From Promethearchaeota archaeon (lineage in GTDB: Archaea; Asgardarchaeota; Thorarchaeia; Thorarchaeales; Thorarchaeaceae), in contig JBHLPF010000010.1 of NCBI GenBank assembly GCA_048939765.1, positions 1 to 64,000 on the forward strand: a stretch of DNA of 64,000 bases, in the 5' to 3' direction. Below, one piece after another: positions 1-62,014 of this stretch. The translations under genes and the position numbers were made by a program. The notes under the pieces are model-generated. The model saw only the letters and a program-made list of their open reading frames with translations, did not search any database and had not been told where the DNA came from. Each line of letters starts with the position of its first letter. Within the stretch, counting starts at the first letter, position 1.

Positions 1-1459
1 TATTCCAGTCCACCTTGACCTCAATCGACGGGTTCAGACTATGGGGGATTCTGTCAAAGACCTCCATTCTCACTGGACGCTTCGAATAGCTCTCAATCTC
101 GAGACGATATTTGTATGCCCTTCTAAGTTTTCCACGAGTGATGCCTGCCTTTTCGACCTCACGATTAATCAGCTTCTTTTTTGCCTTCACATCATAAGCA
201 GTCCTTGTCCCGAGTTTGAACTTCTCACGTGGACTCATGAGATTAATGCTGGTTTCCCCGATATAATCGCCCTCTGCATACACCTTGGCACCGCCGGGTA
301 GAAGCACTGCATCACCATTCGTGACCTCATCCTGGGCAACGACCTCTGCCATGCCGTCGGCGTACCAATAATGGATGGTCCTTGAAGCAAACTCTTCCTC
401 AACTAGAGTCACTGGATGACGTTTGTTATCGGATGGAATCGATACCGGTTTGGGCAGCTCATACACTGATATTCCAGAAACAGCCTCCGATGCTTCAGCA
501 AACTCCACCTCAATCTCAGGGGGTGGAGCCGGGGGAGGTGCGGCGCCTGGTGCTGCTGCCATTGGCCTAGGCATCGCCTTTTCTTTCTTCATTGCGATAG
601 AACTCGAAACCCTCTTTCTCTCATCTCTTCGTCTTCTTAGCAGTTCTGGATCATATGCTGTGATGATGAGCGGCGAACCCTCAACCGCCTCAACAGGTCG
701 TGCAGTTGCAGTTGACACAATAAAATCGACTTCTTCCCAGTCCTCGCGTGTCGCATTAGCGACAAGTGCCATCCTCCGAACCGTTGCCTTGTCAGCATAC
801 AGATCCACATCATAAGACGGATTCCAATTTGCTCCACTCACTTGGTAGGTCACATCAAGTTCCACCTCTGCCTTGTCCCTGACCTCCAACGAGATTTCAA
901 CCTCATAGAATGAGTCAGTTCTTCTCTTTGACTCAATTTGTCCAATGTTGCTTCTCAGGACACTAATCTGATCCTTAATCTCCTTGCGCTGCTCTGTTAT
1001 GGTTCTCAGCTTGTTCTTGACGGACTCTACCATCTTATCTGATTTGGAATCCATTTCGATTAACTGGTCCATCTTCGCCTCATTGGCAGCAAAAAGCATG
1101 CCGAAAGTCCCTGCGAAATCTCCAACCATTCCCCGTATATTGATGAGCCGCTGATTCTGAGTCTCCATCTCGTCTTCCATCTTATGAAGTGATTTCTCTA
1201 GTTTCTTCAGTTCGTCGTATAGCGGCTTGACATCCTCCTTTGGATCAAACACAACCTCTGTTCTTCTAACATCAATAGTAGACAATGCTGCAGGGCCTTT
1301 CCCTTTTACACGAAAGCTGTCCTCTTGTGCGTATGCTGTTATTCCTTTGACCAACACCTTCTGAGGCCCTGCATCTAGTTTCGCAGTTCCACTCCGAGAT
1401 ATACGGGCCCCATCTCTAAAGACGGTCACTTGCTGAATCCTTGTCTTCATCTCTGTCAA
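1..1459 (-). CDS. DUF4140/DUF4139 (MuiA-like) protein, 3' end runs off the window
   Basis: Not in the ORF track. TTG at 1459 follows a GGAGA SD and reads MTEMKTRIQQVTVFRDGARISRSG...EDSFRV (DUF4140-type N-terminus). The same frame reads ...RIPHSLNPSIEVKVDWN at the left edge. Confidence 0.85.
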   Translation of the reverse strand, partial: MTEMKTRIQQVTVFRDGARISRSGTAKLDAGPQKVLVKGITAYAQEDSFRVKGKGPAALSTIDVRRTEVVFDPKEDVKPLYDELKKLEKSLHKMEDEMETQNQRLINIRGMVGDFAGTFGMLFAANEAKMDQLIEMDSKSDKMVESVKNKLRTITEQRKEIKDQISVLRSNIGQIESKRRTDSFYEVEISLEVRDKAEVELDVTYQVSGANWNPSYDVDLYADKATVRRMALVANATREDWEEVDFIVSTATARPVEAVEGSPLIITAYDPELLRRRRDERKRVSSSIAMKKEKAMPRPMAAAPGAAPPPAPPPEIEVEFAEASEAVSGISVYELPKPVSIPSDNKRHPVTLVEEEFASRTIHYWYADGMAEVVAQDEVTNGDAVLLPGGAKVYAEGDYIGETSINLMSPREKFKLGTRTAYDVKAKKKLINREVEKAGITRGKLRRAYKYRLEIESYSKRPVRMEVFDRIPHSLNPSIEVKVDWN

Positions 1460-1527
1460 GAATTATCTCCCGGCTTGTCGTGAGCCGCTGCACATTTATT
1501 CTTTGAGTAGACATCTAGCATCGGGCA

Positions 1528-2772
1528 TTAATTTCTAGGCCCCTGTCGTAGAACTCTGCTGTATCCGAGCTCATCTTTGTCAATATGCTGAATTGGTATA
1601 AGCAGTCGAAAGGCACACCCATCCCTATCGACCAAATCTATTAGCTCAATTGTACCGCCCAAGTGCTCAATGATTGATTTGGTAAGATAGAGCCCCATTC
1701 CAGCTCCTCCTTTTGTTGTGAATCCCTTTTCGAAAATTACGCTTCGAAATTGGATTGGAACTCCCGGACCATCATCACAGAATATGACTTCTAGAAGCTC
1801 ACTCTGCATTTTGACCATGATCTCAACCTTAGGATTGCTCCCTGCATGCTGAGATACGTTTCGAATCATATTCGAAAAGACGGTACTGACAAGTTTGCTT
1901 CGAGGGCGAACTTGTCGAGCGTCACTGTCTGCGCTAATCTCGATTGTGAGATTCCTATCCATCAATCTAGCAAGCTCTGCAATATACTCGAGCATCGAAA
2001 CAACGTTCTCGAACTCCTCGGGAACAGGAGCTGAGAATAGTCTAAGCAAACTCGCCATTCGTTCTCCAGCAGCTAGAGATGTCTTTAGCTGATCAGAAAT
2101 TCGTCCTTCTTGCGAGGGGAGCATTAAAGATGAGAGCTCGATACCCCCAATGACCACCTGCATATCATTGCCTAAATCATGAGTTAGTATTGACGTGTAT
2201 ATTTGCAGCTCCTTTTGTCGTTCATCCAAATCCCTATTTCGTTTCTCAAGTTGTTCTACGTAATACATGTGCGTCCAGTTTCCCAGCAAAATTAGGATAG
2301 TTAGGGCAATTTCAGCGGCGATTACTTCAGCTGCGACTCCAACAGCAATCCCCGGATGGACAAAGACTGTCACGACTAGAGCAGCATTCAATAGAATTCC
2401 CAATATCGTTTCAGACCGAGGACTTAGCATTTGACTGCCAACAACTACTGCCAGAATCGGCCATGTGAAAATTTGAAACATGAGGCCTCTTTGATCCCAA
2501 ATAGGATTGGAGGATAATGCAAAGAATGGCACTAGCGAAACAAGAACGATCCCAATCTTTGCTGCAATCTCATAATATTTGGTTCTGCTGACTAGATAGA
2601 GAAAAGCGGAGAAGAACGTCATTGTAGTGTAGATAGGCATACCTTGAATGACGACACTTGTTATCTGCAATAGAGGAAAGACACAACAGCCTGCAAACAA
2701 TGCAGTGGATACGTATCTTGCTTTTAGTGTGGGACCTCCTGGGTCTACCTCAGGCGCAGGTTCTGTCAGCAA
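1528..2772 (-). CDS. Membrane sensor histidine kinase
   Basis: About 5 TM segments, H-box THDLGN, N-box NMIRN, G1 DDGPG, G2 GAGMGL. Start uncertain because the frame stays open upstream. Confidence 0.9.
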   Translation of the reverse strand: MLTEPAPEVDPGGPTLKARYVSTALFAGCCVFPLLQITSVVIQGMPIYTTMTFFSAFLYLVSRTKYYEIAAKIGIVLVSLVPFFALSSNPIWDQRGLMFQIFTWPILAVVVGSQMLSPRSETILGILLNAALVVTVFVHPGIAVGVAAEVIAAEIALTILILLGNWTHMYYVEQLEKRNRDLDERQKELQIYTSILTHDLGNDMQVVIGGIELSSLMLPSQEGRISDQLKTSLAAGERMASLLRLFSAPVPEEFENVVSMLEYIAELARLMDRNLTIEISADSDARQVRPRSKLVSTVFSNMIRNVSQHAGSNPKVEIMVKMQSELLEVIFCDDGPGVPIQFRSVIFEKGFTTKGGAGMGLYLTKSIIEHLGGTIELIDLVDRDGCAFRLLIPIQHIDKDELGYSRVLRQGPRN

Positions 2773-57725: not shown

Positions 57726-59984
57726 ATGCTTCAAGTCATTGCAAGAGCTCTTGATCGAGATATTAGGAGGAAGATGCTAGCCGCAGGACTAGTGTCAGCG
57801 CTTATGGCTGTTAGTCTTGTGGGCACAATTGGCTATCTAGGTGGTGCTTTTGGTCCATTTGGATTGCTTTCTCATCCCAATGAACCAGTCTACACAATCA
57901 ACAACATTGTGACTAGCAACTTTGCAGACTTCCAACCACGTGAAGAGCCGTTCATACCAAATGCGCCATTATACACCGTTGATCCCGGTCTTTCCAATGT
58001 TGCTGGCTATGGATTGATTGAAAACCTTCCTGCAGATTTGCTTCTCCAGATAGAATACAATGGTTTTGCTGCGGCCACTCAAACGGAATACAAGCAAATC
58101 CATGAGATATTGGAATTGAACGAAAAGCAATCAATTCCAAGCTTTGTGTCCTCAGACGCTGTGTTGCACGCGTTCCACGTTCTCTATGACCTGTCTCTTA
58201 GGGAAGTTGAAGTCTATTCTTTCTGGGATCTTCTCGGTAATCTGACATCCTCAATGCTGGACTCATCCTTTAACCAATACTTAGCAGCTCCTGAAGGCAG
58301 ATGGAAGGATGCTGCTTTAAGAAACATGATGCTCTTCACAGTCGCTCTCAAGCTCATCGACAGCAACTACATGATTCCTCCAGCATTCCCATTTCAGGTT
58401 GACATTGAGGTTGCAAAGGTGCTCTCCCTGATTGAAGCGCACGATGCTATATCGGATGAATGGTTCCAAGAATACCGAGAAGACTTCACTCAATTCGTGC
58501 CACGGGGACATTACACTCGCAGTGAAACTCTTGAGCGTTACTTCAAAGCAATGATGTGGTATGGGAGAGTATCTCTGCGATTGCAGCCCAATCTTCCTGA
58601 ATTCCCAAACGAAAAAGGCAAGGATAATACTGCCCAGGCGATTCTCATCTCATTGGCCCTCATGGATGAGATATCCACCATGCCAGCCGGGATCACAGGT
58701 TATGACTTATGGGATGCAATCTATGAACCCACAGTCTTCTTTGTAGGTGCTGCTGATGACCTTTTACCAAGTGAGTACTTGGAGCTGGTCCAAACCATCT
58801 ACGGCTCTGAGATTACTATTCCTGACCTTGATGATGATGTTCTTTTAGAGAATTTCATTGATGCTGCTCTGGAGTTGCGAGAACCAGCAATCTTAGGTCA
58901 TCCTGTACCGGATACACTGACCTTAGCCCAGACTATGGGACTTCGGTTCATGGGGCAGAGGTACATTCCAGATAGCTACATCCTGGGGCAACTAGTCTAC
59001 AAGAATGTAGGAACCATGGCGAATCCAAGACTCATGCCTATGGGCCTCGATGTGATGGCTGCTCTGGGCTCTGATAGAGCTTGGGAACTCCTTGAGCCCG
59101 AGAAGATCTACGCGAACTATGAATCGCAGATGAACATGCTCTGGGACATGGTGGCCAATATCACCGAGGCTGAATGGACAAGCAACCTATACTATCTATG
59201 GTTGTACTCTCTTCTACCCCTTCTATCTGATCCGGGGGAAGGCTATCCTTTCTTTATGCAGACTGAAGCGTGGGTTGACAAGCAGCTGTCCACAGCACTG
59301 GGTTCATGGGCTGAACTTAGGCATGATACGATTCTCTATGCCAAGCAGTCTTATACTTGGGAATTGACCGGAATGCCACCTCCTGTTAAGGGATATGTAG
59401 AGCCAGTTCCCCAAGTATATGCACGTTTGGCCTCTTTGTGCGAGATGATGATTGATGGGCTTGATTCCAGGAGCCTGCTGTCCACTTCGATTGGCAGCAA
59501 GCTCAACGCCCTATACAGTCTTCTATTGAATCTTCAGACAATTTCTATAAAAGAGTTGGAGGGAACTCCTCTGACGGAGTCAGAATACTACCTCATCGAA
59601 GGCTGTGGAAAGACACTGGGATCAATTGTTGCAATGCCACAGGATGACTACCTTACATCAGATGCTGACGATGACATGGCTGTCATCGCTGATGTTCACA
59701 CCGACCCTAATACCTTTAGTGTGCTTGAAGAGGCTGTAGGAAGACCGATGGTCATCTATGTAGCTGTCGAAGTTGATGGACAAGTCATTCTCACCCGAGG
59801 AGGAATCTTCTCATACTACGAGTTCACTTGGCCAATGGATGACCGCCTCACAGACGAGGCATGGCAAGATATGCTCACCCAAGGTGAGGCGCCACCCCTT
59901 CCAACTTGGACTGCAAGCTTTGTGATCACCGCCGAAGTCACTTTGCCTGCATTAAATACACTCACCTCAAAGGAATCAGTTTAA
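57726..59984 (+). CDS. DUF3160 domain protein, N-terminally anchored/secreted
   Basis: PRGHYT, YFKAMMWYGR, FMGQR, SWAELRHDTILYAKQSY and ADVHTD motifs. Confidence 0.9.
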   Translation: MLQVIARALDRDIRRKMLAAGLVSALMAVSLVGTIGYLGGAFGPFGLLSHPNEPVYTINNIVTSNFADFQPREEPFIPNAPLYTVDPGLSNVAGYGLIENLPADLLLQIEYNGFAAATQTEYKQIHEILELNEKQSIPSFVSSDAVLHAFHVLYDLSLREVEVYSFWDLLGNLTSSMLDSSFNQYLAAPEGRWKDAALRNMMLFTVALKLIDSNYMIPPAFPFQVDIEVAKVLSLIEAHDAISDEWFQEYREDFTQFVPRGHYTRSETLERYFKAMMWYGRVSLRLQPNLPEFPNEKGKDNTAQAILISLALMDEISTMPAGITGYDLWDAIYEPTVFFVGAADDLLPSEYLELVQTIYGSEITIPDLDDDVLLENFIDAALELREPAILGHPVPDTLTLAQTMGLRFMGQRYIPDSYILGQLVYKNVGTMANPRLMPMGLDVMAALGSDRAWELLEPEKIYANYESQMNMLWDMVANITEAEWTSNLYYLWLYSLLPLLSDPGEGYPFFMQTEAWVDKQLSTALGSWAELRHDTILYAKQSYTWELTGMPPPVKGYVEPVPQVYARLASLCEMMIDGLDSRSLLSTSIGSKLNALYSLLLNLQTISIKELEGTPLTESEYYLIEGCGKTLGSIVAMPQDDYLTSDADDDMAVIADVHTDPNTFSVLEEAVGRPMVIYVAVEVDGQVILTRGGIFSYYEFTWPMDDRLTDEAWQDMLTQGEAPPLPTWTASFVITAEVTLPALNTLTSKESV

Positions 59985-60791: not shown

Positions 60792-61147
60792 ACCACCAAC
60801 TCCTTTCCAGGCTACTGGAGATGAACATTTGCTCCTAGCCATAACGACGATGACAAATACGGCTGAAACACTGCCAAGTGCAACTACCATTATGAAACTT
60901 ATGTCTAATCTAGTCCTCAGTTAACCGTTAATGATGCTTTGAAGATACTTCTTGGAACGGCAAAGTCCTCGGATTTTATTGAAGAGATTGAGGACCCTCA
61001 GATGGAGTATTAGAAGGCCAAGGGATTCCCATATCCTGCCTGAAAATAAGTCATTGATTAAGAAATAAAAGGGAAAAAAGGCAATGAACTATTGAAGGCG
61101 AGGTTGGGGCCTCGACAAGCACAGTGGAAGTCCCGAGTTCAGGTCGT

Positions 61148-61372
61148 CTAGACCTCTTCGCCTTCACCAGGAGTCTGAAGCTCAGCTATCTTTTCATCGA
61201 TGTTCTTGATGCTATCCTCAAGATGTGACTTGAATGCCTCAAGGCGTTTGATAGCTGTTTCCTTACTCTCGAAGTCTGAGCAGCAATCAGAGAACCCAAA
61301 GATGCCTGGCATCATACCAAAGCCAAAGGCATGTCTAGGTCTTCCCCTCATACCGTGATGTGAATCACACAT
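61148..61372 (-). CDS. Small DUF5320-like protein (Gly/Met/His-rich N-terminus, CC, coiled coil), 74 aa
   Basis: ATG overlaps the PadR stop (TAATG) and follows a GGAGGTGA SD. Confidence 0.8.
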   Translation of the reverse strand: MCDSHHGMRGRPRHAFGFGMMPGIFGFSDCCSDFESKETAIKRLEAFKSHLEDSIKNIDEKIAELQTPGEGEEV

Positions 61373-61953
61373 TATTCGTTTTTCACCTCCCACTCCTCTT
61401 CTTCACTGCTGAGCTCGACCAACTGCTGGTTGACCCATTTGAGTTCGGTTTCAAGGTAACGTCGATATTCCTTTAGATACTCTAATCGCTCCTGAACACA
61501 GTTAGGAGATTTACAGCAGGCGTGCTTCATCGCTGCAAATCCTGTCGGGCTTCTATGACGTGCCATGTTCTCAAAAAGAATAGACGCAGTTTCCCCCCGA
61601 ACTGCACTTCCCAGAAATCCCCAGAATCGATCGTGCATCTGCATTTCCCCTCCCATGTGACTAAGCACTCGAGACAGTACCTCTTCACCACTTGGTGTGA
61701 GGGAGTATTCTATTGCATCCGGACGAATTTCTTGCTGGACTCTCTTGCCTTTGATAAGGCCTCTCTTGGAGAGTCTGCGAAGAGCAGGGTATAGTGTCCC
61801 GCTCTTCAACAGTATTCCCAGTTGTTCTTTCAGGCCCGAGAGTATTGCATATCCATGGGCAGGCCCCTGTCTCAGCTGCGCCAAGATGAGGAGCTCCACT
61901 CGACTTATGGTCTTTCTCGGCGGGCCCATTCTTCTAGGTCCGGGGAATTCCAA
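61372..61953 (-). CDS. PadR-family transcriptional regulator
   Basis: PAHGYAI, SGTLYPALRRL and YSLTPSG motifs. Cys cluster and coiled coil at the C-terminus. Confidence 0.92.
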   Translation of the reverse strand: MEFPGPRRMGPPRKTISRVELLILAQLRQGPAHGYAILSGLKEQLGILLKSGTLYPALRRLSKRGLIKGKRVQQEIRPDAIEYSLTPSGEEVLSRVLSHMGGEMQMHDRFWGFLGSAVRGETASILFENMARHRSPTGFAAMKHACCKSPNCVQERLEYLKEYRRYLETELKWVNQQLVELSSEEEEWEVKNE

Positions 61954-61954
61954 T

Positions 61955-62014
61955 TATGTAGTCACCAACTTATGTAGAGTTCTACATATACATATGTAGA
62001 CGCCTACATATAAA
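61955..62014 (-). promoter_or_regulatory. Tandem PadR-type operators (TATGTAG-N4-CTACATA) overlapping the padR TATA box
   Basis: Perfect-arm sites at 61971-61988 and 61993-62010, and a degenerate site at 61955-61972. Minus-strand TTTATAT at 62008-62014. Confidence 0.8.

Follow-up and report, generated by a model that had tools for sequence, protein, structure and literature searches.

A PadR-family repressor and a co-encoded DUF5320-type small protein with a related helix form a predicted autoregulated cassette in Asgard archaea

We describe a pair of overlapping genes in the window, a stretch of 64,000 nucleotides from one contig of a 3.37-Mb Thorarchaeia (Asgard) bin. Sequence evidence supports well that the pair is a self-contained, autoregulated cassette, in which a repressor of the PadR subfamily-1 type would act at two or three tandem predicted operators of the ATGT-N8-ACAT type over its own promoter (Table 1). 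It is equally well supported that the gene downstream, co-translated with the repressor, specifies a free-standing protein of the DUF5320 type, whose helix is of the same kind and in the same register as the DUF5320-type last helix of the repressor. The chances seem to us evenly balanced that this small protein is a PadR-binding regulatory subunit, which would report chemical state through a disordered head rich in Cys, His, and Met.

Table 1. Positions in the window of the genes and putative regulatory elements of the cassette.
Feature	Position	Strand	Remarks
PadR-family repressor gene	61372-61929 with stop (61375-61929 without)	minus	185 aa from ATG
Alternative PadR start	61953	minus	TTG; would give 193 aa
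Small partner gene	61148-61372 with stop (61151-61372 without)	minus	74 aa
TAATG stop/start overlap	61370-61374	minus	read from the sequence
Putative operator O1	61994-62009		palindrome ATGTAGACGCCTACAT; edge abuts a TTTATAT (TATA-like) tract at 62008-62014, minus strand
Putative operator O2	61972-61987		palindrome ATGTAGAGTTCTACAT (ATGT-N8-ACAT type); position kept in related loci
Degenerate third operator copy	61955-61970		half-site here, full site in other genera; direct-repeat family D1
Hairpin, then T-rich tract	61060-61114 (hairpin 61099-61114, T-rich tract 61060-61079)	minus	3' of the small gene; from sequence

Base 61372 is common to the PadR stop codon TAA and the ATG of the small gene. 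The overlap at TAATG given in a preliminary description of this DNA is thus exact, and the junction points to translational coupling of the two genes. Among relatives, the genes either overlap in the same way (TAATG) or are separated by spacers of 0 to 20 nt, and some junctions contain a GGAGGTG motif. The hairpin and T-rich tract 3' of the small gene look like the end of a two-gene transcript. This stretch is kept in loci of the same genus, even when the next gene is different. Flanking genes vary between loci and comprise, in this genome, a DUF998 gene and an unassigned membrane protein. When the region was scanned for tRNA and Rfam families, nothing was detected apart from a sub-threshold match to the C/D-box sRNA sR55 at 59744-59800 on the plus strand (23.7 bits versus a gathering score of 35, E 0.007), which lies inside a DUF3160 gene and is probably a chance match. 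Elsewhere, 10 loci of genus g12 (among L009-L021) have a gene for a membrane-anchored thioredoxin-like protein 3' of the cassette, on the same strand and about 100 to 600 nt downstream of the small gene. This protein has a WCPSC motif and a Pfam Redoxin match (E 7e-15), and its gene is without a PadR operator of its own.

The predicted operators O1 and O2 are perfect ATGTAG-N4-CTACAT palindromes just upstream of PadR, and they are the only exact copies of the site in the 3.37-Mb genome. Seven further sites have one mismatch, a number that is about that expected by chance on a rough estimate. Every related locus with upstream DNA has two or three sites upstream of PadR, 22 and 16 bp apart, with the third sites of other loci at -30 or -16; no operator sites were found elsewhere within those loci. 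The same motif precedes the cassettes of other Asgard families. Because the predicted operators are confined to the cassette's own promoter, a point missed in the preliminary description, the cassette resembles a two-gene unit that controls itself, with nothing but the two encoded proteins as its regulated products.

A full-length PadR orthologue (E 1e-37 or better) is encoded in 25 of 87 genomes of the class. The same 25 genomes carry the small gene, each time as a single copy directly downstream of PadR and on the same strand, and neither gene occurs alone in any of the 87, decayed small-gene remnants in two further genomes aside. The architecture also recurs in four other Asgard families, as found in a search of 400 Asgard genomes. 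The PadRs of these families match Pfam at E 1e-12 to 1e-22 and the small-protein profile with their C-termini, and each has a small relative immediately after it. Conservation of the gene pair, which the preliminary description had proposed to check across Asgard genomes, is therefore seen both as adjacency in 25 of 25 genomes and in these more distant families. In one lineage among these, the PadR tail matches the entire small-protein profile, including the His/Met/Trp-rich segment that precedes the helix, as would be expected of a fused DUF5320-type module. Anchored scores between PadR tails and small proteins are positive across lineages, and a PadR's own partner is not systematically its best match (in this score table, the small-protein anchor of locus L041 is in the wrong register). 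The scores thus give no sign of pair-specific co-evolution and fit one old divergence rather than repeated duplication. The remnants of the small gene that lack an adjoining PadR lie at 1687-1827 of L033 (G016:C603) and at about 1636-1845 of L034 (G055:C150). The G055 remnant adjoins a membrane-protein gene, the same one that borders the intact cassette in sister species, and the cassette seems to have been lost in G055.

The window's PadR has a winged helix at residues 10-90, with a Pfam PF03551 match at residues 15-86 (E 2.4e-15, 56.7 bits against a cut-off of 27) that is common to all 47 PadR orthologues. An AlphaFold2 model (pLDDT 83.4) places the winged helix ahead of helices at 92-109, 113-124, 128-140, and 145-183, with a Cys loop (C138, C139, and C144) before the last of them. 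The modeled fold resembles two-domain PadR subfamily-1 structures such as 5x11 and 6jyi, and full-length profile alignments were obtained to AphA and BC1756. The likeness to subfamily 1, represented by Bacillus subtilis PadR, Vibrio cholerae AphA, VanR, and BC1756, lies in the winged helix, the two-domain size, and, in the model, the long last helices. Members of that subfamily form homodimers through the C-terminal domain and regulate themselves at palindromes of the ATGT-N8-ACAT type, which is also the type of the operators predicted here. The difference lies in the C-terminal domain itself, which gives DUF5320-type matches rather than matches to Vir_act_alpha_C or to solved C-terminal domains. 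Vir_act_alpha_C, the usual C-terminal model of subfamily 1, was matched at E 0.1 or better by none of the 47 orthologues, and a profile of the domain compared with solved structures returned no PadR C-terminal domain, only chance matches to 14-3-3 proteins. Residues 98-173 gave a weak DUF5320 match that is below the cut-off (17.7 bits, E 0.008). Weak C-terminal matches to DUF5320, again all below the cut-off, were found in 30 of 47 orthologues and in five of six PadRs of other Asgard families, and in none of six control PadRs. These matches suggest that the repressor carries a DUF5320-like tail that the other PadRs tested do not have. In three loci of related Thorarchaeia genomes (L028, L029, and L031), we also observed paralogous PadRs of about 160 aa whose C-terminal ends carry a TRASH-type Cys motif (matches to Pfam TRASH_HVO_1752_C and Ta0938, E ~1e-6); these look like fusions of PadR to a metal-binding domain.

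DUF5320 is a widespread family of anaerobes. A literature search found no functional work on it, and the family has no known function. Among 28 relatives of the small protein, 15 match PF17253 (DUF5320) at E 0.1 or better (best E 3.4e-8), and NCBI annotates one relative as DUF5320. The window's own small protein falls below the 27-bit cut-off (14.5 bits, E 0.08); given relatives that reach E 3.4e-8, it belongs to a diverged DUF5320 branch and is not a curated member. Like DUF5320 proteins, it has a disordered Gly/aromatic-rich N-terminus followed by a C-terminal coiled-coil helix, but it differs from canonical members in its Cys2, His5, and Cys-Cys, and in its coupling to PadR. The DUF5320 identity of the small protein and of the PadR tail is absent from the preliminary description. 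In the structure model, residues 1-29 are disordered and a single confident amphipathic helix (37-66) is followed by an acidic tail. With only one helix, the protein is not expected to form a folded core alone, and the model agrees with the earlier claim that it has no DNA-binding domain. The N-terminal 29 residues are rich in Cys, His, Met, Gly, and Phe, with Cys2 and His5 conserved, and are followed by C30 and C31; the helix is under purifying selection (median dN/dS 0.105). A type II toxin-antitoxin or defence role was considered and rejected: the small protein, a charged single helix, had no PADLOC match, and that of PadR was only at chance level (0.066).

A canonical DUF5320 gene is present elsewhere in this genome, in locus L001 (contig C18:8550-11843, with ORFs at 1-576, 566-1435, 1459-1773(-), and 1899-2207), and encodes 104 aa (E 4.2e-5). 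On one side of it are two genes for MinD-type ATPases with ferredoxin-like Cys motifs, and on the other is a divergent DUF134 HTH gene (E 1.4e-19). Such an arrangement is the usual DUF5320 context, with DUF134, NifX, or MinD-ferredoxin genes and not PadR, and is separate from the PadR cassette.

Sequence comparisons indicate that the small protein and PadR's last helix are truly related, beyond the likeness of generic coiled coils. The gapless alignment reported earlier is exact, and in each protein a stretch of 34 residues leads from the second Cys to the final Leu (K140 to L173 in PadR and S32 to L65 in the small protein). All the hydrophobic matches listed with it are present, namely, L149/I41, L152/L44, Y155/F47, L159E160/L51E52, L163K164/I55K56, V166/I58, L170/I62, and E172L173/E64L65. 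Both helices have the same irregular hydrophobic spacing of 3-4-4-3-4-3 (L152, Y155, L159, L163, V166, L170, and L173 versus L44, F47, L51, I55, I58, I62, and L65). Compared by BLASTP, the two sequences on their own reach E 7e-6. At the family level, hhalign of the wider small family (28 sequences) against 22 PadR tails gave a probability of 91% (P 1.1e-6, score 35.9) over 47 columns, in the register of the preliminary description and with the Cys included. Controls scored far lower, at 11.0 for the reversed tail alignment (P 0.19) and 14.8 for the best of 30 column shuffles (P 0.03). The profile comparison against generic coiled-coil similarity, which that description had put forward as a test, thus speaks for a specific resemblance of the helices. 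Note that the signal depends on family depth, because a narrow profile built from close relatives only reached a probability of just 24% (P 8e-4).

Searches of the whole genome, covering all 30,872 six-frame open frames of at least 45 aa, give a similar picture. PadR is the best non-self match of the small-family HMM (E 1.2e-4, the next being 0.14), and the small protein is the best non-self match of the PadR-tail HMM (E 0.045). With the narrow small-family HMM, PadR was absent from the top 20 genome matches. When all gapless offsets were scanned at the family level, the register of the earlier alignment scored 30.1 and the runner-up 14.3. A generic heptad pattern would score alike at shifts of seven residues; the seven-residue offset among the top ten scored 9.5, and the opposite seven-residue shift lower, so the likeness is not that of a generic heptad. 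A search of 1.84 billion protein representatives with the small family returned family members and long generic coiled coils. PadR was absent from it at E 0.001 or better, a threshold that is far too strict for a 30-residue helix.

Conservation of the cysteines follows a different pattern from that proposed earlier. The vicinal Cys-Cys had been taken as a conserved motif shared by both proteins, and this does not hold: among 24 pairs, it occurs in seven small proteins and four PadRs. Each of the 24 small proteins carries one Cys or more immediately ahead of the helix; Cys2 is present in 21, and in 20 a His falls within residues 3-7. Of the 24 PadRs, 20 contain Cys in the loop that precedes the last helix, mostly as C-x4-C. 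Four PadRs of the window's own genus lack Cys in this loop, as do the PadR tails of most other Asgard versions examined. In the gapless register, the aligned conserved Cys is found in 19 of 24 PadRs at the C138 column and in 22 of 24 small proteins at C30, and Cys-Cys with x-Pro after it is common in the sequences that represent the clusters of the wider small family. The preliminary description held that merely generic coiled-coil similarity, with a Cys-Cys spacing unconserved in homologues, would count against its proposal; the helix similarity is specific and conserved, but the Cys-Cys motif is not. Its suggestion that Cys-Cys provides metal or redox sensing is weakened by the sporadic occurrence of the motif and by the absence of loop Cys from the four same-genus PadRs and from several Asgard tails.

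The C-terminal domain of B. subtilis PadR forms about 70% of the dimer interface, and Leu156Glu at the CTD-CTD' interface yields a monomer (PMC5728393). This supports the statement of the preliminary description that PadR proteins dimerise through their C-terminal helices, the C-terminal domain being the main interface in subfamily 1 (PMC5728393). A free helix that shares its kind and register with the last helix of PadR would be well placed to pack on it. As a regulatory subunit, the small protein would pack its helix against the homologous last helix of PadR and alter either PadR dimerisation or the cooperation between operator-bound dimers. This effect would be set by the state of the N-terminal segment, through metal or metal-sulfur loading or through thiol oxidation, and titration of the small protein by its ligand would feed back on its own synthesis. 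We favour a stoichiometric sensor or co-repressor subunit as likelier than a constitutive dominant-negative antagonist, because co-translation is obligatory and the only operators are the cassette's own, which makes a closed autoregulatory loop.

The antagonist, the main reading of the preliminary description, would work as SinI does. The small helix would displace the partner's last helix, leaving a 1:1 heterodimer of PadR and small protein with one DNA-binding domain, so that operator affinity drops and the operon is derepressed. This has in its favour the homology of the small protein to the last helix (hhalign 91%, P 1.1e-6), the role of the C-terminal domain as the main dimer interface, and the precedent of sinI-sinR, where a truncated relative of the oligomerisation element lies beside its repressor (PMC3917956). 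We nevertheless judge it unlikely. Co-translation from the pair's own autoregulated promoter fixes the ratio of the two proteins, so a constitutive antagonist would only blunt repression; the genes overlap, and no separate promoter for the small gene is seen. In addition, the PadR helix has extra aromatic core residues (F/Y151, Y158, and W165) that the small helix does not, and the latter may not be able to replace a whole subunit.

The homology of the two helices could also date from an ancient joining of a DUF5320 module to PadR and imply no heteromeric contact. The operon's product would then be the small DUF5320-type protein as an independent payload, for example, a metal or metal-sulfur carrier or buffer; PadR would sense alone, both helices would homo-oligomerise, and their likeness would be a relic. 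The His-, Cys-, and Met-rich N-terminus suits such a role, and pair-specific co-variation is absent. Genomic contexts are compatible with it as well: the canonical DUF5320 gene of this genome adjoins DUF134 and MinD-ferredoxin ATPase genes, and a Bathyarchaeota Cys-Cys DUF5320-like gene lies two genes from a short PadR without the tail. This reading is doubtful all the same, because the genes are strictly adjacent and coupled in 25 of 25 genomes, and because both proteins have preserved register, hydrophobic spacing, and aligned Cys over deep divergences among Asgard lineages, which is hard to explain if the helices never meet. A chance or generic coiled-coil resemblance of two unrelated amphipathic helices is a further alternative; it draws on the long coiled-coil proteins that the small-family profile also matches in the 1.84-billion-protein library and on the modest P value of the narrow profile. 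It is very improbable and largely refuted by the gap between the real and the control alignments, the fall from 30 to about 9 at seven-residue shifts, the rank of PadR as top non-self genome match ahead of every other helical protein, and the recurrence of the architecture in other lineages. We keep the regulatory subunit as the preferred reading.

The closest known parallels to such a subunit are SinR/SinI and SlrR/SlrA of B. subtilis, each a repressor with an adjacent small relative of its oligomerisation helices that has no DNA-binding domain, and with a partly bicistronic mRNA (PMC3917956). SinI forms a tight 1:1 complex with SinR and blocks its tetramerisation (PMC3917956). However, SinR is an Xre-type HTH protein and not a PadR, sinI lies upstream of sinR with its own regulated promoter, and SinI is an antagonist of tetramerisation. 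The archaeal cassette has the repressor first and the partner second, with obligatory translational coupling. No paralogous mini-partner gene was found in a described PadR subfamily-1 member. Within the wider PadR family, LftR of Listeria monocytogenes, a short subfamily-2 PadR, is co-encoded with a small accessory protein, LftS, that is needed for its regulation. To our knowledge, LftS is not a relative of the PadR helix. In eukaryotes, microProteins such as Id for bHLH and LITTLE ZIPPER for HD-ZIPIII factors are short proteins that comprise only a transcription factor's dimerisation element. These are separately transcribed antagonists that are unrelated in sequence, and the likeness to the small protein is one of logic only.

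Similar mini-proteins were observed beyond the cassette. In two Bathyarchaeota loci (L036 and L037, 1150-3213, all on the same strand), a short PadR of 129 aa with a Cys/His-rich N-terminal extension is accompanied by a Na/H-exchanger family membrane protein and a His-rich, Cys-Cys-containing DUF5320-like protein of 70 aa. In other Asgard families, proteins of 36 to 55 aa, with a Cys/His segment plus a helix, match the small-protein profile (L050 954-1118, L051 1299-1478, L048 988-1221, and L049 997-1200). They adjoin a divergent HxlR-like gene or lie just downstream of a 246-aa winged-helix protein, these regulators having been assigned by eye. Such cases hint that mini-proteins of this kind often accompany regulators. 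Tentatively, and as something we consider possible rather than likely, DUF5320-type mini-proteins may be general, detachable coiled-coil partner subunits of archaeal winged-helix factors (PadR, HxlR-like, DUF134, and others), docking on a homologous helix and relaying metal, metal-sulfur, or redox state from their disordered Cys/His/Met-rich heads.

Such a general class, were it real, would parallel eukaryotic microProtein control in prokaryotes, on an Asgard-wide scale, and would provide the first function for DUF5320. The cassette itself, by placing a DUF5320-type protein beside a PadR with the same helix, gives the family its first testable role, as a regulator's partner. Should a metal or cluster bind to the N-terminal Cys/His/Met segment, the cassette would be a compact sensor with a defined 60-bp operator region, which would help studies of regulation in organisms that are difficult to grow. 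And if the two proteins do pair, a circuit of the SinR/SinI kind, built from a repressor and its look-alike, would be added to the PadR family and to the Archaea, specifically to the Asgard archaea.
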